Positions 2,882 to 41,079 of a DNA stretch of 64,000 nt are shown here, one piece after another; the first letter of the stretch is position 1; each line of letters starts with the position of its first letter. A program made the translations under genes and the position numbers. This stretch comes from Dehalococcoidia bacterium (GTDB lineage: Bacteria > Chloroflexota > Dehalococcoidia > Bin125): positions 1,536,001-1,600,000 of the forward strand of contig OY820591.1 in NCBI GenBank assembly GCA_963555985.3, read 5' to 3'. The notes under the pieces were generated by a model that ran no database searches, was not told the DNA's origin, and saw only the letters and a program-made list of their open reading frames with translations.

Positions 2882-2888
2882 CCGCCCC

Positions 2889-24300: not shown

Positions 24301-24347
24301 TCTGGTTGTCATGAATCTAACCAGACCTGAACCAGAGAGCTGACAGA

Positions 24348-24455
24348 ATGTCTAGCGGCAACCAGAAGGAATCAAAGCCCGTAAAGACTGCCCTTCCGAA
24401 GGACCGGAAAGTTCCGCCGCCCGGCCCACCAGTCAAGGTTGAGCGAGGGCTGTAG
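24348..24455 (+). CDS. 35-aa Pro-rich peptide MSSGNQKESKPVKTALPKDRKVPPPGPPVKVERGL
   Basis: Translated by hand; weak GAGAG RBS; PPPGP shared with ORFs at 40155 and ~40366. Confidence 0.55.
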   Translation: MSSGNQKESKPVKTALPKDRKVPPPGPPVKVERGL

Positions 24456-24461
24456 GCTTTC

Positions 24462-24989
24462 TCAAGGGCAGAAGCACCATGGCCAAGTCGCCACTACCGC
24501 CGCGATTCCAGCAAGAATCAGATTCACAGTCGTCAGTGCCACTGCTCGCCTAAGCCAAGCTGCCTTCTCTGTAAGCGCTGCTTCGTTCTCCTTGAACGAG
24601 GCCCACATTTCGCGAGCTGCCCAAGTGCGCGCAACCACCAGGCTGTTTTCCTCCGAGATGCGATCGAATGCCTCCACGTCGGGGCGCATTTCCCAATTTC
24701 GTAGTCGAAAAGCGAAGAATGCACATACGGCATTTGCGATGAACACCGTCACTATTGTGAAGAGCACCCACCATAGTGCCTGAGTTATCTCGTCGGCGCG
24801 AAGCGTGAAGGCTGCTCCCAAGACAGCGATGAGGGCACCGCTCAGCGTGAATGTTGCAGCAAGTTTTCGATCCAGTGCGTCGATTCGTCCTGTCTGTTCG
24901 TCCAAGTGCCATTGCGCTAAGGCGAGCAGCTCCTCGTCCCCGGTGCGCGCGCCGACCTGTTCAATCTCGATTTCTTGTCCATCGGCCAT
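24462..24989 (-). CDS. 3-TM membrane protein, Pycsar TM-effector-like (copy A)
   Basis: Three hydrophobic helices; aligns by eye with 40570..41079; lower GC than flanks. Confidence 0.75.
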   Translation of the reverse strand: MADGQEIEIEQVGARTGDEELLALAQWHLDEQTGRIDALDRKLAATFTLSGALIAVLGAAFTLRADEITQALWWVLFTIVTVFIANAVCAFFAFRLRNWEMRPDVEAFDRISEENSLVVARTWAAREMWASFKENEAALTEKAAWLRRAVALTTVNLILAGIAAVVATWPWCFCP

Positions 24990-25080
24990 CGCGCTTCCCT
25001 TCTCCCTTCAAAACACATCGAGTCACGATCGTAGCCCCAACCCGCTGCTAAACTGACCCCGCACTTGCGAGGAGCTTCAC

Positions 25081-26271
25081 ATGAGCGACCCAATCAAAGG
25101 ACAAACCGCGATCTGCGGACTCGGCATCACCGAGATGGGCAAGGTCTACGGACACGACGCCTCCTGGTTTGCCGGTGAGGCGATCAAGCTCGCCATCGAG
25201 GACGCCGGACTCCAGAAGGACGACATCGACGGCCTCCTCGTCAACCCGGGCATCACGGGCATGATGGGTACCGGGATCAGCATCCCCCTCCAGGGCTATC
25301 TCGGACTCCGCAACCTGCGCCTGCTCAATCACATGAACTCTTACGGCGCGACTGCCTCGGCGATGATCCAGTACGCCGCCATGGCTGTCCACCACGGCAT
25401 GGCCAACTACGTCGCTTGCGTTTTCTCCGACGCCCCGCTGCAAAAGGGCGGCTCCGCCGGCGCTGCCTATGGCGGTGCCGGGCGCCGCGGGCCAAGCGGC
25501 ATGGCCTCCTTAATGCCAGCCTTCGGCTTCTACGGCGCGAACACCTCCTACGCCCTCGCAGCGCGCCGCTACATGGAGCGCTACGGCATCACGAACAACG
25601 ACCTGGGCCGCGTCTCTGTCACCCAACGCCGCTACGCCGTCGATAATCCCCACGCCACCATGCGCGCTCCGCTGACCTTGGAGGACTACCACAACTCCCG
25701 CTGGATCGTAGAGCCGTTCCACCTGCTCGACTGCTGCCTCGTCTCAAACGGCGCAGTCTGCACGATCGTCACCACCGCCGACCGCGCGCGCGACCTCAAG
25801 TCCAATCCGGCCTACGTCTGGGGCATGGGACAAGGACACCCGGGCAACTTCCCCCACGCCGAAGTCGAGGTCGGCACGACCTCCGGTGCCGTCATCGCCG
25901 GTGAGACCGCCTACAAGATGGCTGGCGTCGGCCCTGAAGACGTCGACGTCTGCGAGTTCTACGACTGCTACACCTACACCGTGCTGCGAACCATCGAGGA
26001 CTACGGACTAACAAAGCCGGGCGAGGCCATCAGCCTCTACCCCGAAGACCCAGCCGCGCCCGAAGCCGACCTCCCCAAGATCAACACCGGTGGCGGGCAG
26101 CTCTCCGCCTACTACATGTGGGGCATGACCCCAATCTCGGAAGGCGTGATCCAGGCGCGCGGCAGCGGCGGCGATCGTCAGATCGAGAAGCACGACGTGG
26201 TGCTCTGCTCCGGCAACGGTGGCACCCTGGACACGCACGGCACGCTGATCCTCTCACCCCACGCCAACTAG
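25081..26271 (+). CDS. Thiolase-superfamily protein (Ltp2/SCP-x-like, probable aldolase)
   Basis: LLDCC..SNG, YDCYT, NTGGGQLSAYY; no nucleophilic Cys; adjacent DUF35 gene. Confidence 0.85.
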   Translation: MSDPIKGQTAICGLGITEMGKVYGHDASWFAGEAIKLAIEDAGLQKDDIDGLLVNPGITGMMGTGISIPLQGYLGLRNLRLLNHMNSYGATASAMIQYAAMAVHHGMANYVACVFSDAPLQKGGSAGAAYGGAGRRGPSGMASLMPAFGFYGANTSYALAARRYMERYGITNNDLGRVSVTQRRYAVDNPHATMRAPLTLEDYHNSRWIVEPFHLLDCCLVSNGAVCTIVTTADRARDLKSNPAYVWGMGQGHPGNFPHAEVEVGTTSGAVIAGETAYKMAGVGPEDVDVCEFYDCYTYTVLRTIEDYGLTKPGEAISLYPEDPAAPEADLPKINTGGGQLSAYYMWGMTPISEGVIQARGSGGDRQIEKHDVVLCSGNGGTLDTHGTLILSPHAN

Positions 26272-26350
26272 CCGACGAGCGCACCCCGACCATCGAGTGC
26301 TGATCGCTGCGAGCCGGCGAAGGCCGCGCGCAGCATTGGAGCAATGCCCT

Positions 26351-26755
26351 GTGGCCTACGAGAAGCCCCTCCCGAATCCGGACGAGAACACACAGCCCTG
26401 GTTCGATGCCCTCCGCGAGCACAAGCTGCTCTTGCAGTACTTCCCCTCAGCCGACCACTACCAGTACCCCTACACCGACCGCTGCTACAAGGACTGGTCG
26501 ACCGACTGGGAATGGCGCGAATCGGCCGGCAATGGCGTTGTCTACACCTGGGTGCGAATGCACCAGCTCTATCACCCGTCTTGGAAAGAGGAGATCCCGT
26601 ACACCCTCGCCGTCGTCGAACTCGATGAGGGGCCGCGGATGCAGACGAACCTGGTCAACGTGGATGTCGAGGACATTCACGTGGGTCTGCGGGTAAAGAT
26701 CTACTTCGACGACGTCACCGACGAATTCACACTGCCCAAGTTCGAGCCTGCCTGA
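26351..26755 (+). CDS. DUF35/ChsH2-like OB-fold protein
   Basis: GNGVVYTW, PYTLAVVELDEGPR, LPKF. Confidence 0.88.
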   Translation: MAYEKPLPNPDENTQPWFDALREHKLLLQYFPSADHYQYPYTDRCYKDWSTDWEWRESAGNGVVYTWVRMHQLYHPSWKEEIPYTLAVVELDEGPRMQTNLVNVDVEDIHVGLRVKIYFDDVTDEFTLPKFEPA

Positions 26756-26774
26756 TCGATTGCGCCCGAAACCG

Positions 26775-28031
26775 ATGCCCGAGACCCCGCAGCCGACCGA
26801 CAGACCGCCGCTTGACGGCGTACGTGTCGTCGACTTCACCTGGATCGTCGCCGGTCCGACCTGTACCCGTCTCCTCGGTGATCTCGGCGCGGAGGTAATC
26901 CGGGTCGAGAACGAGCAGACCCTCGACTCAATCCGCTTCGGAGGGCCGCATCCGAACGGTTTCGATCCCCCTGACTCAGGCGGAATGTTCAACTGGCTAA
27001 ACCGCAACAAGCGCTCGATCACGCTCAACGCACGCCATCCGCACGGGCTGGACTTAATCAAGCGGCTGATCTCCGTATCGGATGTCGTCGTTGAGAACTA
27101 CTCCTCGAGGGTGCTCGAAAACTGGGGACTGAGCTACGAGCAGCAGCGCGAGCAGCGTGAGGACATCATTTATGTCTCGCTCAGCGGCTTCGGGCACAGC
27201 GGCCCCCAGCGCGACTACGGAACTTGGGGGCCAACCGCGCAGGCGCTCTCCGGACTCACGGCAATGTCGGGACTGCCCGGCGAGGAACCCGCAGGCTGGG
27301 GATACTCCTACTTGGATCACATGGCCGGATTCACCGCCGCCGCCGCAATCGTCGCGGCGCTGCACCACCGTCGCGCAGCCGGCGAAGGGCAATGGATCGA
27401 CCTCTCTCAAGTCGAAACCGGCATGACCCTGAGCGGCCCCGCGACGTTGGACTACACCGCCAACGGGCGCCGCTACCGTGAGACCGGGAATCCGCCGGGC
27501 AACCGCAGCGTCTGGCCCCGATCTGCGCCCCACAACACCTATCCGACAGCAGGCGAAGACAACTGGATCACGATCACCTGCACCTCCGACGCTGAGTGGT
27601 CGGCCTTCTGCGACGTAAGCGACCACCCCCACTGGCGCGACGATCCACGCTTCGCCACGCTCCCGGCCCGCCTCCGCCACGAGGACGAGCTGGATGAACA
27701 GATCGGCTCATGGACCGCTGGACAAGATGGACGCGCGCTCATGTATCGCTTGCAGGCCGCTGGCGTCCCCGCTGGCGTGGTTCAAAACGGTGTTGACCTA
27801 GTGCTCAATGACCCGCAGCTCGCAGCACGCGAATGGACAGCCGAGCGGGAGCATCCCGTGATCGGTCGCCACATCACCGATGGTCTCCAGATGCGGTTCT
27901 CACGCACGCCCGCGCACCGCGATCGCCCCGGACCGCGCCTGGGTGAAGCCAACGAGTACGTGTTCGGCGAACTGCTCGGCATGAGCCAAGGCGAAATCGA
28001 AGAACTGCGCCGAAGCGGAGCTTTGGGATGA
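26775..28031 (+). CDS. Class III CoA-transferase (CaiB/BaiF)
   Basis: PLDGVRVVD, LGAEVIRVE, NRNKRSITL, DVVVEN, GP.LGE. Confidence 0.93.
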   Translation: MPETPQPTDRPPLDGVRVVDFTWIVAGPTCTRLLGDLGAEVIRVENEQTLDSIRFGGPHPNGFDPPDSGGMFNWLNRNKRSITLNARHPHGLDLIKRLISVSDVVVENYSSRVLENWGLSYEQQREQREDIIYVSLSGFGHSGPQRDYGTWGPTAQALSGLTAMSGLPGEEPAGWGYSYLDHMAGFTAAAAIVAALHHRRAAGEGQWIDLSQVETGMTLSGPATLDYTANGRRYRETGNPPGNRSVWPRSAPHNTYPTAGEDNWITITCTSDAEWSAFCDVSDHPHWRDDPRFATLPARLRHEDELDEQIGSWTAGQDGRALMYRLQAAGVPAGVVQNGVDLVLNDPQLAAREWTAEREHPVIGRHITDGLQMRFSRTPAHRDRPGPRLGEANEYVFGELLGMSQGEIEELRRSGALG

Positions 28032-28035
28032 TGTC

Positions 28036-29286
28036 GTGACAAATCGCGCAGGACCGCTTGAGGGGCAGCGAGTCCTGGATCTCAGCGATCCAAAGGGACA
28101 CTACGCGGGCAAGCTGCTCGCTGGACTCGGCGCGGATGTCATCAAAATCGAGCCGCCTGGCGGCGACCTTGGACGCAAGTACGGCCCCTTCCTTGACGAC
28201 CTGCCGGGTCCTGGCCGATCGCTCTATTGGTGGTACTACGGAGCCGGCAAGCGCTCGCTAGTGCTAGACCTTGAAAGTGCCGACGGCCTCGAGCTCTTCG
28301 TACAACTCGCAGAATCAGCCGACGTCGTCCTGGAGACAGCGACCCCGGGCCGACGCCCGTTCGATCCGGTTGCCTTGTCCGACCTCTTTCCCAAACTGGT
28401 CGTGGTCAGCCTGACACCGTTCGGCCAGACCGGACCCTGGCGAGACTGGGCCTGGTCGGACGGCGTTGGACTGGCGCTAGGCGGACCAATGGGATCAACC
28501 GGCTACGACAACATTCCCGGCGCGCCCCCCATGCGTCCCACCGAACACCACGCCGGCCACATCGCCGGCTACTTCGTCGCAACCGGAGCGGCAACCGCGC
28601 TTTACGAGCGTCAGCAAAGCGGGCTCGGACAACATCTCGACATCGCCATGCACGAGTGCTGCGCCTTCACGATCGAATCCTCCGCGCCTTGGGCCCTGTA
28701 CGCACAGCATCCACTCCTGCGACAGACCGGACGCCATGCTGGCCCCCAACCGACTGAGCCCTGGCAATACCCGACGGCGGACGGACGCCTCATCAACATC
28801 TTCGGGATGCCGCGCTCGGAAGCGAGTTGGCTCGCCTTGGTGTCGTTCATCCAGGAGCACGGAATGGGAGAGAACCTGAGCGACTTCGAGCTTTTGGACG
28901 GACGCAAACGCCAGTTGGGACTGCGCCAACCGACAGTGGCAATGATGTTGGCCGACATCGCCGAATTCATCGCGGCGCATGATGCAGAAGAGATATACGC
29001 TGGCGCACAGGCGGCCGGAGCCGCTTGGTCGATCATCCGCACGCCCGATGAGCCGCTGGACGATGAACACTGGCATGCACGTGGCTTCTTCATCGATGTC
29101 GAGCATGAGGAGTGGGGGAGAACCGTGACCTATCCGGGCGCACCCTACCTGTTATCGCAGACCCCCTGGCAGTACGGTCGCCGCGCCCCGCTGCTAGGCG
29201 AGCACACGGCCGAGATCCTGTGCGGAGAGCTCGGCCTCACAGCCGAAGAGCTCGGCGCGCTTGCCGCCGCCGGAGTCACAGCATGA
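28036..29286 (+). CDS. Class III CoA-transferase (CaiB/BaiF), second subunit or paralog
   Basis: LGADVIKIEPPGGD, PFGQTGP, APLLGEHT. Confidence 0.92.
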   Translation: MTNRAGPLEGQRVLDLSDPKGHYAGKLLAGLGADVIKIEPPGGDLGRKYGPFLDDLPGPGRSLYWWYYGAGKRSLVLDLESADGLELFVQLAESADVVLETATPGRRPFDPVALSDLFPKLVVVSLTPFGQTGPWRDWAWSDGVGLALGGPMGSTGYDNIPGAPPMRPTEHHAGHIAGYFVATGAATALYERQQSGLGQHLDIAMHECCAFTIESSAPWALYAQHPLLRQTGRHAGPQPTEPWQYPTADGRLINIFGMPRSEASWLALVSFIQEHGMGENLSDFELLDGRKRQLGLRQPTVAMMLADIAEFIAAHDAEEIYAGAQAAGAAWSIIRTPDEPLDDEHWHARGFFIDVEHEEWGRTVTYPGAPYLLSQTPWQYGRRAPLLGEHTAEILCGELGLTAEELGALAAAGVTA

Positions 29287-30095
29287 GCCAGCGAGGACCG
29301 CAACGACGGCGGCGGCGACGCCCGCGACGCCCGGTTGGCTCGTCCGGCGAGTCCGAAGTCGGCGGGCGTCCAGCTGCCGCTGAGTCCGGCGACTCCGAGG
29401 GCGAGGCCCGAGGGCCAGGTGGCGGCCGCAGGCGCGGAGGTGAACAGGCCCAAGCGCAACAGCCCCCCCGGCGCACGCTCTTCGGAATGCCCCGCATGTC
29501 GGTCGCGCTCTTGGGCGGTCTGCTGGTGGCTATGATCGCCGTCTTTGCCATGCAGTTGATCTTCCCGCCGGAGGAAGTCGTCGACGTCGAAGGTGTAACC
29601 ATCTTCCCCGACCAGGGACGCCGCCACCTCGCCGAAGGCGAGTCGTTCGACGACTACAACTCGTTCCCCCCGACCTCCGGCCCACAGCCTGCCCAAGGAG
29701 CCGAGGTCAAGATCTGGTTGCCCGATGATGAGGACATTCCCGCGCCTGCGCAAATGCTCCCCCTACTCGAACGCGGTGGCATCGTGATCTATTACGACCC
29801 GGACGTGTACGAAGACGCCGACGACGCAACCGGCTTGCTCGGCGCGATGCAGAGCTTGCGTCAGTTCCGTGAGCGCCTCGCCGCGGTTCCCATTGAAGGA
29901 CTCGCAGACAGTCGTGATGACGGTGCCACGATCGTGGTGGTCGCCTGGCGCACGATGCTCCCGATCGCCTCATGGGATGCCGATGGCGACACACAGCTGG
30001 GCGGATTCATGCAGAACGCGCCCGAGGGATACTACGACCGCTATCGGCTCGAACGTGACGGGACGACCGTTTCGGCGGCGAGTGCGGACGAGTAG
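29283..30095 (+). CDS. DUF3105-like membrane-anchored protein
   Basis: Basic N-terminus, TM helix, DQGRRH, YNSFPPTSGP, LERGGIVIYY, VAW. Confidence 0.75.
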   Translation: MSQRGPQRRRRRRPRRPVGSSGESEVGGRPAAAESGDSEGEARGPGGGRRRGGEQAQAQQPPRRTLFGMPRMSVALLGGLLVAMIAVFAMQLIFPPEEVVDVEGVTIFPDQGRRHLAEGESFDDYNSFPPTSGPQPAQGAEVKIWLPDDEDIPAPAQMLPLLERGGIVIYYDPDVYEDADDATGLLGAMQSLRQFRERLAAVPIEGLADSRDDGATIVVVAWRTMLPIASWDADGDTQLGGFMQNAPEGYYDRYRLERDGTTVSAASADE

Positions 30096-30098
30096 CAG

Positions 30099-30644
30099 AT
30101 GCCACTCAGATCGATCGCGGTTGGATTGCTGATTGCGCTGGCGGGAATCTTCTTGGCCTGCGGCGGCTCAGGCAGCGATTTGGCGGAAGATCCACGCCTG
30201 GAGCTGTACGACGACGAACTGACCACGGAAGGCCAACGACATCTGCCGCCGACAGTCACCGTTCCCTACCCGACGATCCCGCCCTACGGCGGGCCGCACG
30301 ACTCCATCCCCACTCCCTGCGGCATCCTCAGCGCCACCCCAAGATTCGAGAATGTGGTGCATGCGCTTGAGCACGGAGCGGTCGTCTTCTGGTACTCCCC
30401 CCATGAACTTGACCCAGAATCCACTGACGGACTGATCGCGATCGCCGCTGACCTGCTCGAAGACGGCCACTACGTGATCGTCGCGCCCTACGGCGCGCTG
30501 GGGCATCCCCTGGTGCTGGTGAGTTGGGGCGAGCGCATGGCCTTGGAACAGCTGGAGCAGGAGACAATCGCCGCATACATCGACGCTTTCCATGACGACG
30601 CCCCCGAACCGCTCGCCGCGGGCGGTTGTCAGACCGCGCTCTAG
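30099..30644 (+). CDS. DUF3105-like lipoprotein
   Basis: Lipobox FLAC; PPYGGPH, VHALEHGAVV, APE. Confidence 0.8.
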   Translation: MPLRSIAVGLLIALAGIFLACGGSGSDLAEDPRLELYDDELTTEGQRHLPPTVTVPYPTIPPYGGPHDSIPTPCGILSATPRFENVVHALEHGAVVFWYSPHELDPESTDGLIAIAADLLEDGHYVIVAPYGALGHPLVLVSWGERMALEQLEQETIAAYIDAFHDDAPEPLAAGGCQTAL

Positions 30645-30653
30645 ACTCTCTCC

Positions 30654-32114
30654 GTGAGCCAATCGCAGCATCCCCTCGAACCGATCTTCTCGCCGCGCGG
30701 GGTGGCGGTAGTAGGCGCGTCTCGCGGTCAGCGCGGAGCGAGAGGGCCCGGCGGCTGGATCGAATCGCTCAAAGACGCCGGTCAACCCAACATCTATCCC
30801 GTCAATCCAAAAGCCGCCGCCGAAGGTCTGGCGATCGGCGGCTATCCCGCTTACGCGCGGCTGATCGATATTCCCGGCCCGGTCGATCATGTCATCTCCG
30901 CAATCCCGGCTGCTTATGTCTTGGACATGCTGGAGGACGCCGCAACCGCCGGTGTGCGCAGCATCCACCTCTTCACCGCCGGATTCGCGGAGACCGGGCT
31001 TGCCGAACGGAGCGAGTTGCAGCACCAGCTCAAGTCCCGCGCCGCCGAACTAGGCATCCGACTGATCGGCCCCAACTGCATGGGCCTCTACGTTCCCGAC
31101 GGCAACGTCTCCTTTTCCCAGCAACTGCCGACCGATTCCGGCCCAGTCGCCTTCTTCTCCCAGTCCGGTACCAACGCCAGCGACGCCACCTACAACGGCG
31201 CCCTGCGCGGTCTGCGCTTCTCGAAAGTCGTCTCCTTTGGCAACGCGATCGACGTCTCCGCCGCCGAACTGATCGAATATGCCCACTGCGACCCCGAAAC
31301 TGAGATCATCGGCGCCTACATCGAAGGCATGACCGACGCGCGCGACTTCTTCCGCTCGCTGCGAGCCGCGGCGCGAGACAAGCCGGTCGCCCTGCTCAAA
31401 GGCGGACTGCTGCCCTCCGGCAGTCGCGCCACCCAATCGCACACGGCCAGCCTCGCCGGATCCGGGCAGATCTGGTCTGCCGCCGCACGCCAGGCAAACG
31501 CCGTCCTGGTCCACAACATGCAGGAGATGGTCGACCTGCTCGTCGGCTGGAGATTCGGAGCTGTCCCCGCCGGACCGCGAATCGGACTCGTCGTCGGCGG
31601 AGGCGGCATCTCGGTCCAGGGCGCCGACGATGTCGAACGCGAAGGCCTGCAACTGCCGCCGCTGAGCGAAGCGACTTTGAGTCGCCTGGCCGAGGTCACG
31701 CCCGTCGCGGGCACGGGCATCCGCAATCCCGTCGACACGATGTCGCTCTGGGATGGCAAGAGAATCCGCCCGACGCTCGAAGCCGTCGCCGAAGATCCGA
31801 GCATCGACGCGATCATCGTGCAAGTCGGCATGAACTGGGGAGTCGGGTTCTTCGGAGACGACCAGATTGAAAACCGGCGCAGGATGATCGCCGAAATCAA
31901 CGAAGCCCGCCAACGACACGGGATCGCGATCGCGATGGTCGTCCCGATCAGCATCGATCACCGCCACGGCCAGTCCAACGCGGCGCTGGCGAGAATGATC
32001 TCCGACTCCGGCCTACCGCTCTACTACAACATCCGCGACGCCGCCCGCGCCATGCGGCGCCTCCTCACCTGGAACACCCGCAGAACCGAGAGAGCCGAAA
32101 GAGCACAGTCATGA
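30654..32114 (+). CDS. Acyl-CoA ligase (ADP-forming) alpha-subunit-like CoA-binding protein
   Basis: VAVVGAS, YPVNP, AGFAE, IGPNCMG, SQSG, SHTASLAG, NPVD. Confidence 0.9.
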   Translation: MSQSQHPLEPIFSPRGVAVVGASRGQRGARGPGGWIESLKDAGQPNIYPVNPKAAAEGLAIGGYPAYARLIDIPGPVDHVISAIPAAYVLDMLEDAATAGVRSIHLFTAGFAETGLAERSELQHQLKSRAAELGIRLIGPNCMGLYVPDGNVSFSQQLPTDSGPVAFFSQSGTNASDATYNGALRGLRFSKVVSFGNAIDVSAAELIEYAHCDPETEIIGAYIEGMTDARDFFRSLRAAARDKPVALLKGGLLPSGSRATQSHTASLAGSGQIWSAAARQANAVLVHNMQEMVDLLVGWRFGAVPAGPRIGLVVGGGGISVQGADDVEREGLQLPPLSEATLSRLAEVTPVAGTGIRNPVDTMSLWDGKRIRPTLEAVAEDPSIDAIIVQVGMNWGVGFFGDDQIENRRRMIAEINEARQRHGIAIAMVVPISIDHRHGQSNAALARMISDSGLPLYYNIRDAARAMRRLLTWNTRRTERAERAQS

Positions 32115-32737
32115 GCAACCAGACCACCGACATCTACGAGGTCATGCAGACCCAGCGCGCCATCCGCCGCTGGACCGACGAACCCGTCGATCCCGAAGTG
32201 ATCGAGCGCATCATCCAAGCCGGCTGCTGGGCGCCCAGCGGCAGCAACTCCCAGCCTTGGGGTTTCCTTGTCGTCACCGACGACGGCATCCGCGAGCGTC
32301 TCGCCACCGTCATCCGCGAGATGTTCAGCTCCCGATTCGGCGGCGACATGCCCAATCCCGACGACATCCCCGATCCCACCACCCGCCGCATGATGCGAGG
32401 CGCGTTCAACCTCTTCGACAACTTCGCCGCCGCCCCCGTCTGGATCATCCCCTGCCTCGTCCGCGTCCAGTCGCCCGCGCCGGAGGGGCTGCTCGCCGGC
32501 AGCAGCATCTACCCCAGCATCCAGAACATCATGCTCGCCGCCCGCGCCGAGGGCCTCGGTACCGTCCTCACCACCCCGCAGGACGGCATCATGGCCGAAC
32601 TCCGCGAAGAACTCAACATCCCCGACAACGCAACCCCCGTCGCCATCATCCCCATGGGCCATCCCAATGCCAACTTCGGCCCCGTCACCCGCAAGCCGCT
32701 CTCCGAGTTCCTCCACTGGAACGCCTGGAACGACTAA
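32111..32737 (+). CDS. Nitroreductase-family protein
   Basis: TQRAIRR, APSGSNSQPW, SIYPSIQN.MLAARAEGLG. Confidence 0.92.
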   Translation: MSNQTTDIYEVMQTQRAIRRWTDEPVDPEVIERIIQAGCWAPSGSNSQPWGFLVVTDDGIRERLATVIREMFSSRFGGDMPNPDDIPDPTTRRMMRGAFNLFDNFAAAPVWIIPCLVRVQSPAPEGLLAGSSIYPSIQNIMLAARAEGLGTVLTTPQDGIMAELREELNIPDNATPVAIIPMGHPNANFGPVTRKPLSEFLHWNAWND

Positions 32738-32783
32738 CTCCCACTTGACTCCGGCGCGACCTCGACGCAAACTGATCTAGGAT

Positions 32784-32795
32784 GAACATATGGTC
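32784..32795. promoter_or_regulatory. LexA-like box (1 mismatch)
   Basis: GAAC-ATAT-GGTC in an AT-richer gap upstream of a DNA glycosylase. Confidence 0.35.
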
Positions 32796-32935
32796 TCTAT
32801 TGATCAGAACGCGCCTGCAATAAACACATTGACAACCGCCCCGAGCCAGCGCCGGGCCTCTGTCCAGTCCGCTTCGTCGCCCCTCCGCGATCGCCCAACC
32901 AGGTGCCGACTGCCGCGCGCCAAGCCCGTACACAG

Positions 32936-32996
32936 TCGAACAACGCCGAACAACCAAGACTTACCAGGACTTACCAAACCTAACCACCCTGACCAC
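32936..32996. repeat. Degenerate 10-bp tandem repeats
   Basis: tcgaacaacg/ccgaacaacc; acttaccagg/acttaccaaa/cctaaccacc/ctgaccac. Confidence 0.6.
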
Positions 32997-33127
32997 ACGA
33001 TTCCCCGTGTTTTACTGGAGATCGTGCTCGGCGAGGCTCCGGAAAAATTTCTCCCTAACCACCTGATCATCCAGAAACTCCTCCGCCCCCCGAACAACCC
33101 GAACAGCAGGAACGAGTAGCCAACGCC

Positions 33128-33775
33128 ATGTCGTCCGTCCGACGCAAGTTCTCGATCCGCAAGGCCTCCGCCCACCTGCGTGAGGCGGATCCGATCCTCG
33201 CCCGCCTGATCGACGAGCATGGACAGTACGAACCACGCCCTTCCAACGATCCCTGGTCGGCGCTCGTCCGATCGATCCTCTTCCAGCAACTCGCCGGCGC
33301 GGCGGCGTCGGCGATCCAGCGCAAATGGTTCGGCTTCTACGGCGACGAGCAGACCACACCGACGCCGGAACAGATTCTGGCCACATCGGACGAGGACTTC
33401 CGCGCCTGCGGCATCTCGCGCCAGAAGATGTCCTACTTCCGCGACCTCGCCCTGCACACCTCCGACGGCCGGCTCAAGCTCTCGCGCCTCAATCGCTTGT
33501 CCGACGACGACGTGACCACAGCCCTCACCCAAGTCAAGGGCATCGGCGAGTGGACCGCGCATATGCATCTAATGTTTCACCTCGGCCGCCCCGACATCCT
33601 GCCCGTCGGCGACCTCGGCGTGCGCAAAGGGATGCAGCTTGCCTACAGCCTGGCCGAGATGCCGACGCCCAAAGAAGCCATCGCGATCGGCGCAAAGTGG
33701 GCGCCCTACCGCTCCGTCGGCAGCTGGTACATGTGGCGCGCCGCCGACACGTTCACGCCCGAACAGTCTCTGTAA
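33128..33775 (+). CDS. DNA-3-methyladenine glycosylase II (AlkA/HhH-GPD family)
   Basis: SILFQQL, LTQVKGIGEWTA, PVGDLGV, W.PYRS. Confidence 0.92.
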   Translation: MSSVRRKFSIRKASAHLREADPILARLIDEHGQYEPRPSNDPWSALVRSILFQQLAGAAASAIQRKWFGFYGDEQTTPTPEQILATSDEDFRACGISRQKMSYFRDLALHTSDGRLKLSRLNRLSDDDVTTALTQVKGIGEWTAHMHLMFHLGRPDILPVGDLGVRKGMQLAYSLAEMPTPKEAIAIGAKWAPYRSVGSWYMWRAADTFTPEQSL

Positions 33776-33786
33776 GGAGTCCGAAC

Positions 33787-34719
33787 ATGCCCGATTCATC
33801 GCGCGACCAGCTCATCGGCTTCATCGGGACGGGCAACATCGGCAACCCGATGGCTCGAAACCTGATCGAGGCCGGGCATCAGCTCGTAGTCTTCGACCTC
33901 CGCCCCGAAGTGATGGAGAACCTGCTCGAGCTCGGCGCGGAGTCCGCCGGCAGCAGCGCCGAAGTCGCGTCCCGATGCTCCATCGTCTTCACCTCACTGC
34001 CCGGTCCACCGGAGGTCGACGCCGCGATCAATAGCCCTGACGGAATTCTCGCGGGCGCGCAGCGTGGTGATATCCACGTTGACCTCAGCAGCAACTCGAT
34101 CACGGTCGTCAAGCGTCTCGCGCAGCAGGAAGCTGATGCGGGCGTGGCCTACATCGACGCCCCGGTCACAGGCGGCGTACCCGGCGCGGAAGCGGGCACG
34201 CTGACCGTGCTCGGCAGCGGCGACGAAGAGGCCTTCGAGCAAGTGCGTCCGCTGTTGGAGGCGATTGGCTCGAACATCTTCCATCTCGGCGAAGCAGGCG
34301 CGGGCTGTCTCTTCAAGCTGCTCAACAACGTCATCATCCTCTGCGGCAACCAGATCGTGCAGGAAGCCCTGGTCCTGGGCACCAAGGCGGGGCTCGATCC
34401 CGAAGACCTAGTGGACAAGCTCCGGTTGGGCACGGCGCGACCGTACATGGGACTCGCCCCCTACCTGCTCGGCAAGCGCTTCGACAATCCTTCCTTCACC
34501 CTGCGCCTGGCCGAAAAGGACGTCTCGCTTGCCCTCGAAGCCGCCCGCGCCAACCAGGTGCCGATGCCCGTCGCCAACGCCGCCCACCAGACCTACCTTC
34601 GAGCCCTCAGCGCCGATCTCGGAGAACAGTCCTTCCTCGCCACCCTCCAAGCACTCGAAGCCGCAGCCGGCTCGGAAATCCCCACCATCCAAATCGAAGG
34701 CGGCCGCGACTCGCTCTAA
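33787..34719 (+). CDS. NAD(P)-dependent beta-hydroxyacid dehydrogenase (MmsB-like)
   Basis: GFIGTGNIG.PM, DAPVTGG, KLLNN, KD; RBS AAGGAG. Confidence 0.92.
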   Translation: MPDSSRDQLIGFIGTGNIGNPMARNLIEAGHQLVVFDLRPEVMENLLELGAESAGSSAEVASRCSIVFTSLPGPPEVDAAINSPDGILAGAQRGDIHVDLSSNSITVVKRLAQQEADAGVAYIDAPVTGGVPGAEAGTLTVLGSGDEEAFEQVRPLLEAIGSNIFHLGEAGAGCLFKLLNNVIILCGNQIVQEALVLGTKAGLDPEDLVDKLRLGTARPYMGLAPYLLGKRFDNPSFTLRLAEKDVSLALEAARANQVPMPVANAAHQTYLRALSADLGEQSFLATLQALEAAAGSEIPTIQIEGGRDSL

Positions 34720-34741
34720 CTGAAGCTCGTCCCCGCTCCAC

Positions 34742-34876
34742 GGAGGCCTTTGCAAAACCCCCATTTCCGTCATTCCCGCGAACGCGGGAATCCATGCGGC
34801 GTATCGAGTGGGATGTAGATTCTCGCGTTCGCAAGAATGGCGAAACGCTCAGATCGGGGATTCTGCAAAGGCCTCC
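34742..34876. mobile_element. 135-bp MITE/REP-doublet, copy 2
   Basis: Perfect 13-bp TIR GGAGGCCTTTGCA; TCCAC direct repeat at 34737-34741 and 34877-34881; internal gtcattcccgcgaacgcgggaatcc. Confidence 0.85.
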
Positions 34877-34912
34877 TCCACGCGGGGACCCGTCTGAACG
34901 GAGACACGTTCC

Positions 34913-35833
34913 ATGCCCGACTCAACCCGCGATCAATACATCGGCTTCATCGGAACCGGCAACATCGGCAATCCGATGGCGCGTCAGTTGATCAGAGGCG
35001 GGCATCAGTTGATCGTCTACGACCTGCGCCCCGAGGCGATCGAGAATCTGCTCGAACTCGGCGCCGAACCCGCCGCCAGCCCGTCCGAGGTCGCATCGCG
35101 CTGTTCAGTCGTTTTCACCTCGCTCCCTGGCCCGCCTCAGATCGAGGCGGCCACAGCCGGCCCCGGCGGCATCCTCACCGGAGCCTCGCCCGGAGACATC
35201 CACGTCGACCTCAGCACGAACTCGCTCAAAGGCGTCCAACGAATGCTGGCGCTCGAAGCCGATGCCGGCGTCGTACACATCGATGCCCCCGTCACCGGCG
35301 GCGTCGTCCGAGCTGGTCAGGGCACGCTGACCGTCTACGGCAGCGGAGACGCCGAGACATTCGAGCGCGTTCGCCCGCTCCTTGAACACATCGGCGCGAA
35401 CGTGTTCCACCTCGGCGAGGCCGGCATGGGCTGCCTCTACAAGCTGGTCAACAACGTGATCGTGTTGAGCGGCCACATGATTGTGCATGAGGCGTTGGTG
35501 CTAGGAGCCAAGGCGGGGTTAGATATGCGCGACCTGGTCGAGAAGCTTCGACTCGGTACCGCGCGACCGTACATGTTCATGGTCGATGAGTTGCTGGCCA
35601 AGCAATGGGAGAACCCCACCTCTCAGGGCTTCATCGCAGAGAAAGACCTTGCGCTCGCGTTGGAACTGGCGCGCGACACTCAAGTCCCGATGCCGGTCGC
35701 CAACGCCGTCCATCAAACGTATCTGGCAATGCTGGCTGCGGGTTTCGGCGAGCTGCATCATTACTCCGCGCAGAACGTTCTCGAGGCGGCGGCCGGAATC
35801 GAGATCCCCGCGATGGAGTTGCAGGACGAGTGA
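34913..35833 (+). CDS. NAD(P)-dependent beta-hydroxyacid dehydrogenase, tandem paralog
   Basis: Near-identical N-terminus to 33787..34719 (MPDS.RDQ.IGFIGTGNIGNPMAR). Confidence 0.92.
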   Translation: MPDSTRDQYIGFIGTGNIGNPMARQLIRGGHQLIVYDLRPEAIENLLELGAEPAASPSEVASRCSVVFTSLPGPPQIEAATAGPGGILTGASPGDIHVDLSTNSLKGVQRMLALEADAGVVHIDAPVTGGVVRAGQGTLTVYGSGDAETFERVRPLLEHIGANVFHLGEAGMGCLYKLVNNVIVLSGHMIVHEALVLGAKAGLDMRDLVEKLRLGTARPYMFMVDELLAKQWENPTSQGFIAEKDLALALELARDTQVPMPVANAVHQTYLAMLAAGFGELHHYSAQNVLEAAAGIEIPAMELQDE

Positions 35834-35870
35834 GCCCCTTGTCGAAATCCCCGATCAGCTCAACGGCGCC

Positions 35871-37394
35871 CTACCAAGCATCCACAGGGTGCTTCTTCAC
35901 CGCCGGCAACGGCGCACGCGGCGTCATCCGCAGCATCGCGATCAGCCGCTCCCGCGTCTCTTCCGGCGCAATCACGTCGTCAAAGTCGTAACGCTTACCC
36001 GCATTGATCGCGGAATTCCGCTCGCGCATCTCCGCCGCCCACTCGTCCCGCATTCGCTTCGCCTCAGCCGGATCCTCGCGCTCGACCTCCCGAATCCGAT
36101 CACGATTGACTAACAGCGACGCGCCCTCAAGACCCATCCCGCCAGACTCCGCCGTCGGCCAGGCCAGCTTCAGATCGCGATTGGCGTAGCTGTTCCCCAT
36201 CGCCGCCGGACCGAGACCGTACGCCTTGCGCAGCTGAATCGTGTACAGCGGAACCGTCCGATGCTGATGCGCAATGATCGGCCGCGCATGGTGCCGCGCG
36301 ATCCCCGCCTCCTCCGCCGGCCTGCCGACCATGTAGCCGGGGTTGTCGATGAACGACACCATCGGAAGCTCATACGCATCGCAGAGCTGGATGAATCGCG
36401 CGATCTTGTCCGATGCGTCCGAGTCAATCGCCCCCGCAATCCGCGACAGCGGCTGATTCGCAATGATCCCAACCGAACGCCCGCCCAGCCGCGCCAGCGC
36501 CGTGATCAGCTGCGGAGCCCAGCTCGGACGCAGCTCGAACAGCGTGCCGCGATCCATCACCGCCCGCAGCACCTTGAGCATGTTGTAAGCCCGCCGGCGG
36601 TTAGAAGGCACGATCCCGCGAATGCGCTCAGCGCTGGGGTCGATCTCCCCATCCGCCAGGTCGTACAGGAAGTAGCGCAGATATCGACCGGCCGCGCCGA
36701 TCGCCTCAGCCTCCGTCTCAACCATCAGATCGATCCCGCCGACCCGATCATGCATCTCCGCCGGCCCAATCTCGTCCGGCGTGAGCTTCAGACCCATCGC
36801 TCCCTCAACTAGCGGCGGACCACCCATCCCGATCGCCGAATCGCGAGTCGCCACGATGAAGTCCGACAGCCCCGCAATCGAGGCGTTGCCCGCAAACGAC
36901 CGCCCCGAAACGACCGAGACCGTCGGTACCCACCCCGAGAGCTGAGCCATCCCGTCGAACGTCCCCCAGCGCCCCGTCAGTCCCATCCGCGACCCACCCA
37001 AATCATGCGCTCGCGCGCCGCCCCCGTCCGCGAAAGTAATCAGCGGCCAGCGCCGCTCATAGACCAACTCAATCAAGCGGTCGAACTTCCCGTGATTCAG
37101 CGCCGTCTGCGTCCCGCCGGCCACGGTGTAGTCATACGACGCAATCGCGACCGGATGACCCTCAATCGTCCCGAAACCCTGCACCAGCCCGTCCGCAGGC
37201 CCCTCGAACGCCTTGTTGCTCGGTACCGCGAGCGCGCCGTACTCAACGAAACTGTCCTCGTCGAGCATCATCGCGATTCGCTCACGCGCAGTGAACTTCC
37301 CCCTCGCGTGGACTCTCGCCGCCGCATCCGGGCGCGCCTCATCCATCGCGCCGGCGCGCGCTTCCAAGACCTCATTGATGATCGCTTCGTCCAT
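35871..37394 (-). CDS. Acyl-CoA carboxylase carboxyltransferase subunit
   Basis: GKFTARERI, DYTVAGGT, GGGAR, GGPPL, D.PG.MVG, RKAYG. Confidence 0.92.
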   Translation of the reverse strand: MDEAIINEVLEARAGAMDEARPDAAARVHARGKFTARERIAMMLDEDSFVEYGALAVPSNKAFEGPADGLVQGFGTIEGHPVAIASYDYTVAGGTQTALNHGKFDRLIELVYERRWPLITFADGGGARAHDLGGSRMGLTGRWGTFDGMAQLSGWVPTVSVVSGRSFAGNASIAGLSDFIVATRDSAIGMGGPPLVEGAMGLKLTPDEIGPAEMHDRVGGIDLMVETEAEAIGAAGRYLRYFLYDLADGEIDPSAERIRGIVPSNRRRAYNMLKVLRAVMDRGTLFELRPSWAPQLITALARLGGRSVGIIANQPLSRIAGAIDSDASDKIARFIQLCDAYELPMVSFIDNPGYMVGRPAEEAGIARHHARPIIAHQHRTVPLYTIQLRKAYGLGPAAMGNSYANRDLKLAWPTAESGGMGLEGASLLVNRDRIREVEREDPAEAKRMRDEWAAEMRERNSAINAGKRYDFDDVIAPEETRERLIAMLRMTPRAPLPAVKKHPVDAW

Positions 37395-37469
37395 GTCTGA
37401 GCCTCATCCGCTGGTACGCTCCGCATACGGTATCCGCCCGCATCGAGATCGCCGGTTGGGAGCAACAAA

Positions 37470-39403
37470 ATGGCCTCGGATATTGATCTGGTCGGCCCGT
37501 TGTACGTGAAATGCAGCGGCGAGCCTTGGACGAGCCGGACGCATTCTGGTCCGAGGCCGCCGCCCGGATCCCTTGGTTCCGGGAGTGGGATGAGGTGCTG
37601 GAGTGGACGCCCGGAGCTGTGCCTGCCTTCCAGTGGTTCATCGGCGGCGAGACAAACCTCTCCTATGCCTGTCTCGATGCGCAGGTGATTCAGGGTCACG
37701 GTGGACGTGCCGCCCTGATCGCGCTGGATGAGTCCGGCGCGCAGCGCGTCTTCACCTATGCCCAGTTGCTCAAGCGCGTCGAGCGCATCGCCGCGTCACT
37801 TCGAGCGATCGGCATCGAGCGCGGCGATCGCGTCGCCATCTACATGCCCACCAACTACGAAGCCATCGCCTTGATGCTCGCCTGCGCCCGGATCGGTGCC
37901 GTCCACCTCGTCATCTTCGCCGGATTCGGTGCCGGCGCCATCGCCGATCGCGTCAAGATGGCCGAGGCCAAAGCGCTCTTCATGTCCGACATCACCTACC
38001 GGCGCGGACGCGACGTGCCCCTCGATCACTTCGTCCGAGGAGCGCTCGAGAACGAAGGCGCACACGATGTGGTCGAAACGGTGGTCGTCGAACGTCGTCG
38101 CGCAGACAGTCCCGAAGTCGCCCCGGGCAAGGAGATGAGCTGGGAAGAATTCCTGGCCGCAGGCGAAGGCGGCGACGGCTCCTTTACTCCGATGGAGGCG
38201 AATGACCCCGCCTACATCTTGGCCACGTCAGGCACGACCGCGAAGCCCAAGCTCTGTGTGCACACGCACGGCGGCTACGCCGTCTGGATTTCGAGCATGG
38301 CCGAGTGGATGTTCGATCTCCGCCCCGAAGACGTCTGGTGGGCGACCTCCGACATCGGCTGGGTCGTCGGCCACTCCTACATCGTCTACGCCCCGCTCCT
38401 GGTCGGCGCGGCGACCATCGCGTTTGAAGGAGCGCTCGACTATCCCGACGTAAGCACCTTCTACAAGATCGTCGAAGATCACGGCGTGACCGGCATGTTC
38501 ACCTCGCCCACCGCGATCCGCCTCTTGATGCGATCAGGCGCTGAGGTAGCAGACGACGTCGACCTGACATCGCTCACGCGCGTGTTCTCCGCCGGCGAAG
38601 TGCTCAATCCGCCCGCCTGGGAGTGGTTCCAGCACGAGATCTTCAACGATCAGATCCCGGTCCTCGATCATATGTGGCAGACCGAGACCGGCGGTCCGAT
38701 CATCGGCAATCCCTACGGCATGCAGATGCTGCCGATCAAGCCCGGCTCGGCCGGCATTCCACTGCCCGGGATCGAAGGCATCGTGCTCTCGCCGGAGGGC
38801 GAAACGCTTGGCCCCGATGAGAAAGGCATCTTCGCAATCACGCGCCCCTTCCCCGGACTTACAGCGCGGCTCTGGGGCGAGCCGGAGCGCTACCAGACCG
38901 ACTACTGGGGCAAAGTCCCGGGCGAACAGGTCTACTTCACCGGCGACGCCACCTCGGTCGATACGGATGGGTATGTCTGGTTCTCGGGCCGCGCCGACGA
39001 GATCATCAAGATCGCCGCGCACCGAATCGGGACGATCGAGGTAGAAAGCGCCATCCTGCGCCATCCAGGCGCGGCCGAGGCTGGCGTGACCGGGCGTCCG
39101 GACGAGCTGCGAGGCGAGGTGATTTCCGCGTTCGTCGTGCTCAAAGCGGGCTACGAACCGTCCGAAGACGTCCGCCGGGAGATCTTGCAAACCGTCCGTG
39201 GCGAGCTCGGCCCCGTCGCCGTGATCGGCGAGCTGAACTTCGTCGATCATCTCCCCAAGACGCGCAGCGGGAAGATCATGCGGCGCGTGCTGAAGGCGGT
39301 GACCCTGGACACGGATCCGGGTGATATCTCGACAATTGAGGACGAAGGCTCGGTCGAGGAGGCGCATGCGGCTTGGCAGCGGATGCGCGCCGCGCTTGGC
39401 TAG
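37470..39403 (+). CDS. acs: Acetate/propionate-CoA ligase (Acs family) with apparent 1-bp frameshift near 37498
   Basis: TSGTTAKPK, WQTETGG, YFTGD, GRADE, LPKTRSGK. RBS-led ATG 37470 is out of frame with the main ORF 37511..39403. Confidence 0.88.
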
Positions 39404-39411
39404 GAGCGATC

Positions 39412-40131
39412 GTGCTTCAACGTATTCGTGAGAGCGCACGCGACGACGAGCGGCTGGAGCGCTGGGAGCAGCGGACCAACCTGCCCTTGCTGTTGTTGGC
39501 GGCGGCGATGCTGCCGATCCTGATCGGACAGATGCTGCTTGACCTGGACGCTGCGACGGATGATCTGCTCGAGCTCGGCAGTTGGTTGATCTGGGCGGTC
39601 TTCACGGTCGACCTGGCCGTGCGGCTCTGGTTCGCCGAGAATCGTCGGCGCTTCCTGATTCGGAACTGGATCGATGTCCTCATCGTCGCGGTTCCGTTCC
39701 TGCGTCCGCTGCGCCTGCTCCGCGTGCTCATCGTGCTTGCGCGCTTGTGGCGTCTCCTCGATCGCCGCGGAGTGCGGAGCACGCTAGTGCTCGCGCTCGT
39801 CGTGATGGCCGGCGCGACCGCCGCAGTCTGGGTAGTCGAGCGCGGCTCCGGCGGCGTAATTCACGGATGGGAATCTGCGCTCTGGTGGACACTGGTCACA
39901 ATGGCGACCGGCGACGGGGTGCGCGAGGCGACCACCGTGATTGGCAAGATCCTGGGAGTCGTAGTAACCCTCCTGGGCTTCGCACTGCTCGGCATGGTGA
40001 CCGCGACGATTGCAGCCGCATTCGTGGAGTCAAGCCAGGACGCGGAACAGGAAGAGATCCTGGCGCATCTGCGTTCCTTGCAGGAGGAAGTGCGGCAATT
40101 GCGAGAGAAGCTCGAGTGGTCGGAGGATTGA
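39412..40131 (+). CDS. Voltage-gated K+-channel-like protein with atypical filter
   Basis: S4-like LRPLRLLR; pore helix ALWW.LVTMAT followed by GDG; RBS AGGAG. Confidence 0.85.
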   Translation: MLQRIRESARDDERLERWEQRTNLPLLLLAAAMLPILIGQMLLDLDAATDDLLELGSWLIWAVFTVDLAVRLWFAENRRRFLIRNWIDVLIVAVPFLRPLRLLRVLIVLARLWRLLDRRGVRSTLVLALVVMAGATAAVWVVERGSGGVIHGWESALWWTLVTMATGDGVREATTVIGKILGVVVTLLGFALLGMVTATIAAAFVESSQDAEQEEILAHLRSLQEEVRQLREKLEWSED

Positions 40132-40154
40132 TACCATTGAGTTGGAGAGGAACC

Positions 40155-40373
40155 ATGACAGACGCGAATCCACCGCAGGAGCATGGCGATAGCTGGCCAA
40201 CGGAACTTCCGCCTCCAGGGCCTGCATACATCATCTCGGAGACCGGATTCGGTCCGACTGGCAGATTTGAGACGGAGCCCGAAGACCGGTTTGAGTGGAA
40301 TTGGTCACGGCTGTTTTCTTGGCTCCAGCGATCCAACGGATCTCCCCAGAAAGGCCGTGCACGCGATGGCTGA
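40155..40373 (+). CDS. 72-aa peptide containing ELPPPGP
   Basis: Strong RBS GGAGAGG; MTDANPPQEHGDSWPTELPPPGPAYIISETG... Confidence 0.6.
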   Translation: MTDANPPQEHGDSWPTELPPPGPAYIISETGFGPTGRFETEPEDRFEWNWSRLFSWLQRSNGSPQKGRARDG

Positions 40374-40550
40374 CGAAGAGCCGCAGAAATCCACCATCGA
40401 ATGAGCCGCCAGTCACAGAAGCTCCTAGCCCAGTGACACTTGCCTCAACGCCGGAACTCCCGCCTCCGGGACCAGAGAACCTTGTCACTTTGGACCGGAA
40501 CACATCCCGTCAGCTGATCAAGTACATCGGTTTTTGCCGGGTCAGGCTGA
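40366..40550 (+). pseudogene. Second ELPPPGP peptide, frameshifted (or assembly error)
   Basis: MADEEPQ joins NPPSNEPPVTEAPSPVTLASTPELPPPGPENLVTLD if one A is removed at ~40387-40389; 3' end uncertain. Confidence 0.4.
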
Positions 40551-40569
40551 TTCCGCACCCGAAGACAAG

Positions 40570-41079
40570 TCACTTCTCGGCGAATCCGAGGGCGAGTGAG
40601 GCTGCGGCTGCAACCATGAGAACCGCAAGCACGGACGTGATCATTGCTCTCGTAACCCATTGGCCTTTTGTGAAGATCCTCTCTTCGTTCGCATCCATCG
40701 CCATGAGAATCTCGCGCACAGTCCAGAGAATCACTACCTCGTAAGGGTGAACTCCGGTTGCGACGGTACGCAAGGCGTCCAGGTCGGGCCTCCGGCTGCC
40801 TCGTCCTACTCGATAGGCCCACAAAAGCAACCCGATGTTAAAGACTAATACGAAGATCGTCGAATAGATGAGATATTCTAGAAACCCAGGCAGTACGAGC
40901 TCCCCAAAGCGGAGTGACGCCCCGAGCACTGCGAGCACTGCAAAATTCAGCGCGAACAGCGTGTTCAGGCGACGGTTTAAGGCCTCATGGCGTTCTGCTT
41001 GGTCATCTCGGCGCCACCTCGCTTCACTGAGGTACAAGTTCGCCTTGTCGATTGCCTGCTCTTGGGCTTGATCAGCCAT
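40570..41079 (-). CDS. 3-TM membrane protein, Pycsar TM-effector-like (copy B)
   Basis: Paralog of 24462..24989 (W..D.Q..R..AL.R.L, AVLGA, RPD, W..RE, NE.....K..W..RA); starts immediately after the htpX stop. Confidence 0.75.
   Translation of the reverse strand: MADQAQEQAIDKANLYLSEARWRRDDQAERHEALNRRLNTLFALNFAVLAVLGASLRFGELVLPGFLEYLIYSTIFVLVFNIGLLLWAYRVGRGSRRPDLDALRTVATGVHPYEVVILWTVREILMAMDANEERIFTKGQWVTRAMITSVLAVLMVAAAASLALGFAEK

Follow-up and report, generated by a model that had tools for sequence, protein, structure and literature searches.

A membrane protein distantly related to PycTM and a convergently encoded proline-rich peptide form a conserved gene pair in Chloroflexota

Background

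What might a membrane protein that looks like a Pycsar effector respond to when no nucleotide cyclase is encoded beside it? The question is raised by two loci in a stretch of 64,000 nucleotides (nt) from a Dehalococcoidia bacterium, which corresponds to positions 1536001-1600000 of contig 1 in a genome of 3.33 Mb with 65% guanine plus cytosine (GC) and is called here the window, by which we mean the whole stretch. Each locus carries on the minus strand a gene for a small membrane protein resembling PycTM (TM1 and TM2), and this gene faces, tail to tail, small plus-strand open reading frames (ORFs) encoding proline-rich peptides. An earlier note on this DNA had proposed that the two loci are copies of a peptide and membrane-effector module. 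We find that the membrane-protein gene and the small ORF form a real, conserved two-gene module, as the pairing recurs across homologous loci and the small ORFs show coding-type conservation. What the module does can be put forward with less confidence.

Two gene pairs in the window

Both membrane-protein genes lie where the earlier note had placed them, TM1 at 24462-24989 (minus strand, 175 amino acids (aa), PycTM-like with three membrane helices) and its paralog TM2 at 40570-41079 (minus strand, 169 aa, matching the family profile with E 2.2e-55). The two proteins align over 130 residues with 28% identity (E 1e-16), and all the motifs that had been listed as shared fall inside this alignment. 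The small plus-strand ORFs with the motif PPPGP are present as described. Peptide 1 (24348-24455, plus strand, 35 aa) is hydrophilic and rich in lysine and proline, has the C-terminal end KVPPPGPPVKVERGL / PPPGPPVKVERGL, and its stop codon is separated from that of TM1 by 6 nt. Peptide 2a (40155-40373, plus strand, 72 aa) is acidic and predicted to be disordered, carries ELPPPGPAYIISETG / ELPPPGPAYIISETGFGP, has a tryptophan-rich helix at its C-terminus and shows GGAGAGG 5' of its ATG. A third PPPGP stands at 40460 within ELPPPGPENLVTLD / PPPGPENLVTLD, in the frame of a putative peptide 2b (40433-40744, plus strand) that runs antisense into TM2; here the motif is as claimed, whereas the ORF around it has no in-frame ATG and looks degenerate. 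The GC content of both loci (0.55-0.58) is lower than that of their flanks (0.61-0.67), again as had been observed.

Recurrence of the peptide partner among homologous loci

A profile search of 61 related genomes with the membrane protein yielded 90 matches in 24 genomes, and 88 of these 90 loci were fetched with 1.5 kb flanks for the analyses that follow. Within the same family, 22 of 36 further genomes had a match, with a maximum of 13 copies per genome; matches were also present in one of 24 genomes from other families of the class and in 13 of 401 genomes sampled evenly from the phylum. In the genome of the window a single-sequence search detects four paralogs and the profile detects six, located at 561, 1560, 1577, 2041, 2045 and 2178 kb of contig 1.

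Translation of this 3.33 Mb genome in six frames gave 29 occurrences of PPPGP, three of which are found, on the antisense strand, within 400 nt downstream of TM1 or TM2, where the genome-wide rate predicts about 0.004. Four genomic PPPGP sites differ within the motif at third codon positions only, a pattern that does not settle the strand, as one antisense frame has the same wobble positions. Over the surveyed loci, strict PPPGP was found antisense within 800 nt downstream of the membrane-protein gene in 25 of 88, with 34 motifs in this zone against four elsewhere in the six frames, and two of those four are the same peptides viewed from a tandem neighbour locus. When a profile of the peptide motif region was run against 7045 six-frame segments, 39 of its 44 matches were antisense-downstream of a membrane-protein gene and the remaining five were peptides of an overlapping neighbouring locus; peptides 1 and 2a of the window both match this profile.

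In a blind test, the C-terminal 30-residue ends of all antisense frames with a stop near that of the membrane-protein gene were clustered: 44 of the 88 loci matched a locus whose membrane protein is less than 50% identical, against 11 of 86 in the sense-strand control. The matches form clean families, peptide 1 being a member of cluster 1, together with one cluster rich in arginine and serine that we judged spurious. This test took the place of a first six-frame comparison of all against all, which was dropped because flanking genes and biased composition had confounded it. We also composed eight motif patterns with the data already in view, and these were antisense-downstream in 67 of the 88 loci and on the sense strand in three of 88, both in the same region and upstream. 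By all these tests together, homologs with an adjacent proline-rich small ORF exceed chance by far, as the module proposal had supposed. The eight patterns were also antisense-upstream in 23 loci, which is the expected place of a tandem neighbour's peptide, as was seen for four loci.

The idea that PPPGP defines the peptides did not hold, since it is one variant of a broader proline-rich motif that has a short strand after it. Where a paralog lacks PPPGP, its convergent peptide carries a related motif, such as RPLPxTI, LPPRGE or RPPGxP. In the genome of the window, the convergent small ORF of the third paralog carries VNRGLIPIWEAP and that of the fourth ends in RRPLPLTIDKNGA; such an ORF accompanies at least five of the six paralogs, and its presence is uncertain for the sixth (L087). 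Other variant peptides end in YDLPPRGELATITRY, LGLPPPGELREVPW or KRPPGPAVEIQKRSL, or present LPPGKLDVIYTSGFPPFW in repeats.

A fourth PPPGP, near the third paralog at genome position 2045569, was considered as a member of the peptide family and rejected, as it belongs to an unrelated 105-aa protein with a weak DUF1952-like match (E 0.031) whose orthologs have PPNPG or SPAPG in its place. In the clade of the third paralog, the gene of this 105-aa protein is placed beyond the small ORF at each of the four loci (L003, L022, L050 and L057); at L003 it occupies 2276-2593 (minus strand) and is followed by that of a 240-aa protein without a family match (2757-3479, minus strand).

Where distant homologs from other families were inspected by eye, the 3' end of the gene was accompanied by small ORFs, convergent in some cases and co-directional in others. 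Three loci of genus g36 (L096, L097 and L100) have in common an ORF that runs in the direction of the gene and encodes about 90 aa, acidic and with DPRLFSPLQ, after which L097 and L100 have an ORF with a RelA/SpoT-like look; L098 has a convergent ORF of 31 aa rich in lysine and proline, and L099 and L102 have co-directional proline-rich ORFs.

Coding-type conservation and properties of the peptides

The earlier proposal supposed that the small ORFs are conserved as proteins, and this was borne out. Between L001 (peptide 1) and its ortholog in genome G035 (L008) we counted 7, 1 and 20 differences at the first, second and third codon positions over 35 codons, with a ratio of nonsynonymous to synonymous polymorphism (pN/pS) of 0.14, and between L011 and L012 the differences were 2, 2 and 13 over 37 codons (pN/pS 0.12). 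Over all compared pairs pN/pS ranged between 0.12 and 0.89, the distant pairs being near saturation. Alternative frames are not kept open, each of the five others being free of stops in just 6-14 of 34 small ORFs. An upstream ATG with a Shine-Dalgarno-like 4-mer was found in 30 of 35 segments, whereas the share among all ATG triplets of that DNA is 17%, a contrast that is somewhat overstated since several ATGs per segment were allowed. On these patterns the small ORFs behave as coding genes.

The peptides contain 14.7% proline, their median grand average of hydropathy is -1.01, and none of 30 has a membrane-like window of 19 residues. The AlphaFold2 model of peptide 2a (predicted local distance difference test, pLDDT, 63; predicted template modelling score, pTM, 0.21) has a single helix at residues 50-60, and its low confidence fits intrinsic disorder. 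The peptides are thus predicted to be cytoplasmic and disordered. Their conserved core consists of a basic proline-rich stretch (PPPGP in the window) and then a short stretch of alternating hydrophobic residues. The tail after the motif is kept up to the C-terminus (ΦxΦxRGL, TIxxxG[AL]); many peptides continue for 40-55 further conserved residues, and in the short classes 8-10 codons separate the proline and glycine run from the stop. Peptides of the short class are cationic and rich in proline, those of class B acidic.

Pfam scans of peptides 1 and 2a gave no match at E <= 1. Among the 5.8 billion clusters of the public protein database, a profile of the longer peptide classes found 68 related proteins, which have 57-129 aa and carry neither a Pfam domain nor a name. 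The peptides constitute a new family, characterized by a small ORF that is convergent with a PycTM-like gene, stops no more than a few tens of nt from its stop codon and encodes a basic proline-rich motif and a short strand, and peptides 1 and 2a of the window show these features.

Several variants of the peptides were observed in the survey. A subclass of 75-79 aa (L013 2610-2843, minus strand; L014 1232-1468, plus strand; L037 1258-1482, plus strand) has an extra N-terminal part with Cys-x-Cys-His. In L015, whose ORF ends 31 nt past the membrane-protein match, three PPPGP units are spaced about 21 residues apart in one frame, and in L033, L046, L047 and L051 the motif unit is repeated two or three times per ORF, in some cases as LPPGKLDVIY units.

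One public gene call (P0059, 251 aa) reads the membrane-protein ORF through the stop region into the antisense of the peptide gene (...SGPGGG...). Longer family members were considered as domain fusions and gave nothing informative, P0059 being such a gene-caller read-through. Calls of this kind may hide the small ORFs in annotations.

Geometry, co-diversification and age of the loci

In 44 pairs the distance from stop to stop has a median of 9 nt, is no greater than 30 nt in 38 pairs, and is an overlap in 10. Simple promoter and terminator scans of the two window loci found no sites. No terminator fits between the genes, so that, as far as the layout tells, the convergent transcripts must overlap. 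Mapping the peptide class on the tree of membrane proteins required 23 changes, against 39-47 in 200 label shuffles, a difference to which kinship contributes, and modules were found in tandem arrays. The pair evolves as a unit, peptide and membrane protein diversifying together.

Two genomes of other genera (G030 and G024) have a TM1-type and a TM2-type gene 16-18 kb apart, syntenic with the loci of the window. A search of plasmid and phage collections with TM1 (tblastn) gave no match at E <= 1e-3. Both window loci are placed among housekeeping and metabolic genes, as had been said of them, with an M20 peptidase, an SDR protein, a thiolase-like protein and its OB-fold partner, an acyl-CoA synthetase and an M48 protease as neighbours. 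The loci are old chromosomal residents whose copies are born and lost, rather than recent insertions.

The membrane protein and its family

The AlphaFold2 model of TM1 (pLDDT 89.9, pTM 0.79) has helices at residues 17-62, 70-95, 105-114 and 117-168. Most of its arginine and lysine residues are at the N-terminus and in the loop 96-148, from which the positive-inside rule predicts a topology with the N-terminus inside, three membrane spans and the C-terminus outside, the N-terminal helix and loop 96-148 being cytoplasmic. With such a topology the nearly invariant residues Q32, P103, W123, N135 and K142 would be on the cytoplasmic side. TM1, TM2 and the further paralogs span 162-200 aa, and 8 of the 88 membrane-protein matches have internal stops. 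At E <= 1e-3 the family profile gathers 1912 cluster representatives, of which 536 remain at E <= 1e-10; most have 150-190 aa.

No solved relative was found among known structures, the best sequence search having E 0.13 and the best Foldseek search E 0.27, and an NCBIfam scan returned nothing meaningful. In the case of the defence-system models of PADLOC, TM1 matches the PycTM model with E 2.3e-7 and CBASS 2TM effector models with E 2-3e-7, in its N-terminal half only; paralog 4 has a PycTM match of 0.004, and paralog 3 is the only one with a match to a SLATT model, the reverse transcriptase (RT)-associated one (E 9.8e-5). The nearest ESM Atlas clusters (0.95 and 0.94) have PF18967 on 33% of their members, and 6 of 11 homologs bear a precomputed PF18967.6 label. 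The resemblance to PycTM that the earlier note had seen therefore stands for TM1 in the PADLOC and Atlas comparisons, and it fails in the Pfam scans, where PF18967 is not matched, and for TM2, which has no PADLOC match. The membrane protein is most probably a distant, sub-threshold relative of the PycTM/SLATT proteins and not a member of the PycTM family.

The absence of an adjacent nucleotide cyclase, also remarked upon earlier, was confirmed on the nearest genes of both loci, and the three Guanylate_cyc domain genes of the genome (at 441, 821 and 1041 kb) are about 120 kb or more away from all six paralogs.

A proposed model: a peptide regulator for a membrane effector

Placing these results into a functional model, we tentatively favour, while giving it somewhat less than an even chance, the reading that the membrane protein is an effector and the peptide its cognate, disordered, cytoplasmic regulator, antitoxin-like in the manner of SpoIISA and SpoIISB, with antisense control in addition. 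Binding, toxicity, the direction of inhibition and a role in phage defence or stress are all elements that we infer. The PycTM/SLATT-like protein would damage or depolarise the membrane when active. The peptide would remain in the cytoplasm, bind its own partner on the helical surface that the N-terminal helix and loop 96-148 present there, and keep it inactive as SpoIISB does SpoIISA, so that loss of the peptide would free the membrane protein. Each gene might also dampen the other through antisense RNA, which is possible because transcripts of genes with abutting or overlapping stop codons read into each other.

A further-reaching reading, which we consider unlikely, is a two-gene system of a kind not described before, where a short, disordered peptide rich in proline would act as the dedicated keeper or trigger of a PycTM-like membrane pore, its polyproline tying the supply of peptide to EF-P and translational capacity, so that a fall in translation, as in phage takeover or stress, would free the pore. 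In this reading the pairing may reach beyond the present family, since distant homologs have small proline-rich or acidic ORFs at the 3' end, and many PycTM-like proteins that look like orphans would then gain a protein partner in place of a nucleotide signal.

Several points weigh against a membrane effector held by a peptide. With regard to the effector, its activity is suggested by a distant family resemblance that stays below threshold: the Pfam scans gave no PF18967 row at E <= 1 for TM1 or TM2, none of 86 family members reached PF18967 at E <= 0.01, the PF18967.5 model run against the genome matched none of the loci, and TM2 matched no PADLOC model. With regard to the pairing, the eight motif patterns were composed with the data in view, and nine more distant homolog loci from other Chloroflexota families had no PP[PSA]G ORF antisense-downstream. 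Co-diversification is expected for any adjacent co-inherited genes and leaves contact between the two proteins unproven. Placement among housekeeping genes, synteny across genera and the lack of plasmid or phage relatives would fit a housekeeping membrane function equally well. Finally, a convergent layout is unusual for protein toxin-antitoxin pairs, which are normally co-transcribed, and stoichiometric control would need some other route. A prediction of the 1:1 complex of TM1 and peptide 1 had a score of 0.00, which gives no verdict and is evidence neither way.

Effectors of the PycTM/SLATT type are known as the killing arm of nucleotide-signalling defence, and the 1912 representatives mostly stand alone, with no stated partner or trigger; for at least one large branch of them, a co-diversifying peptide would provide an answer that can be put to the test. 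It would add a translated family of small proteins that has no name in the databases searched, and it may combine control at the protein level and at the antisense level in one convergent gene pair, which is small enough to be synthesized and tested in a laboratory host. We did not find the pairing in print in the literature searched, supplementary files being outside that search, and passages of PMC13069673 contain nothing on peptide partners.

Alternative explanations

The same gene pair can be read in other ways. The small ORF could be a translation sensor, in which an EF-P-dependent pause at polyproline sets how far transcription and translation run antisense into the membrane-protein gene, whose expression would then report translational capacity. 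PPP and PPG stall ribosomes in the absence of EF-P, the genome has one EF-P gene, the proline run with glycine precedes the stop by 8-10 codons in the short classes, and the stop codons of the two genes abut or overlap. Arrest would not need the residues after the motif, however, and these are conserved up to the C-terminus (ΦxΦxRGL, TIxxxG[AL]) and in many peptides continue for 40-55 positions; moreover, several classes have just PP or PLP. We consider a sensor of this kind clearly unlikely.

Quite improbable, in our estimation, is a second possibility, namely that the peptide is exported as a signal or as an antimicrobial proline-rich peptide and that the membrane protein serves as its exporter, receptor or immunity factor. 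The cationic, proline-rich nature of the short class would fit, as would the variable copy number, the tandem genes and the internal motif repeats of some loci (L011, L013, L015 and L033). Export is nevertheless hard to reconcile with peptides that have neither a signal peptide nor a hydrophobic segment (a membrane-like window in 0 of 30), with a net charge that is not conserved and is acidic in class B, with the lack of transporter or maturation genes near both window loci, and with a three-helix protein of 170 aa, which makes an unlikely exporter.

The membrane proteins might instead be nucleotide-gated effectors of Pycsar or CBASS type, or housekeeping proteins, served from elsewhere in the genome, the peptides being unrelated linked neighbours. 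The match of TM1 to the PycTM and 2TM-effector models and the three cyclase-domain genes of the genome speak in its favour. All six paralogs are, however, separated from the nearest cyclase by about 120 kb or more, and the peptide keeps its place and orientation across clades less than 50% identical and across chromosomal positions while the other neighbours differ, which makes linkage alone insufficient; we give this explanation no better prospects than export.

Very improbable is an action of the small gene as RNA, an antisense antitoxin of type I with incidental translation: the convergent layout with abutting or overlapping 3' ends recalls the type I systems that pair a membrane-active toxin with an antisense RNA (parts of PMC3834814 and PMC6563280), but the peptide frame is under purifying selection and alone always open, its motifs are kept despite divergence of the DNA, its start codons have Shine-Dalgarno-like sequences, the membrane protein, with about 170 aa, greatly exceeds type I toxins in size, and Rfam has no match in the window.

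The second locus, its strain variation and its neighbours

Returning to the locus of TM2, the frame of peptide 2b has no in-frame ATG, and the one start codon that it does have, a GTG at 40433, lacks a Shine-Dalgarno match. The ortholog in genome G033 (L016) has an intact ORF of 67 aa with an ATG start. A 12-codon ORF (40366-40404, plus strand), whose ATG overlaps the end of peptide 2a and whose frame differs from that of peptide 2b, looks like the detached start of the latter, and peptide 2b is probably a decaying copy in this genome. In contigs of four out of four public runs, all of one study, 11 nt of the window are missing at 40498, and the tail from motif to stop then has 42 residues (ending near 40599) versus 94 in the window; the shorter version overlaps the 3' end of TM2. 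In a single low-depth contig of one run (X2, depth 4.8 versus 18.7), 40103 is joined to 41080 by 785 other letters, which replace the 976-nt cassette of peptide and TM2. It may come from a strain in which another cassette has taken this place.

The gene of an M48/HtpX-like protease (41080-42141, minus strand) has its stop codon directly before the TM2 ATG (41077-41082), and both genes may be co-transcribed. Just 5' of peptide 2a there is a 252-aa ORF (39373-40131, plus strand), hydrophobic and with the look of a membrane protein, which has a T-x-G-D-G stretch and no Pfam match at E <= 1e-5. The Rfam scan without a match covered the whole window.

Comparison with known systems

The Pycsar PycTM proteins (PF18967) and the CBASS 2TM effectors, and perhaps the related SLATT proteins, share with the membrane proteins described here a length of about 160-185 aa and an N-terminal amphipathic helix that leads into paired membrane helices. 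For PycTM and CBASS 2TM the likeness extends to the PADLOC matches of TM1 (E 2-3e-7) and to the PF18967 labels on Atlas neighbours and on 6 of 11 homologs. Unlike Pycsar, the loci have no adjacent cyclase or other nucleotide synthase, and the partner is a convergent small peptide gene. They differ from PycTM also in that PF18967 is unmatched in Pfam scans, in that the PADLOC match is limited to the N-terminal half, and in their expansion, which in one Chloroflexota family reaches up to 13 copies per genome.

In the SpoIISA/SpoIISB(/SpoIISC) system of Bacillus, a toxin with three membrane segments is paired with the natively disordered SpoIISB (part of PMC3057836), and the toxin is neutralised by this small cytosolic protein, which folds on binding (parts of PMC3057836, PMC4526809 and PMC4926146). 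A three-helix membrane protein with a small disordered partner is what the peptide composition and the low-confidence fold would match here. The cytoplasmic domain of SpoIISA is, however, GAF-like, whereas our model is all-helical; there is no sequence relation, the Pfam scan of TM1 and TM2 having given no SpoIISA family; and spoIIS is an operon, whereas the present genes converge and their stops abut.

Type I toxins are small hydrophobic peptides whose antitoxins are non-coding RNAs (parts of PMC3834814 and PMC6563280). Like the loci of the window, these systems place the gene of a membrane-active protein against an oppositely transcribed small gene, and the transcripts should overlap. In one type I pair, bsrG and SR4, the transcripts overlap at their 3' ends. 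The type I toxins are nevertheless typically shorter than 60 aa whereas the membrane proteins of the window's genome have 162-200 aa, and where their antitoxin is a non-coding RNA, the small gene described here is under selection of the protein type.

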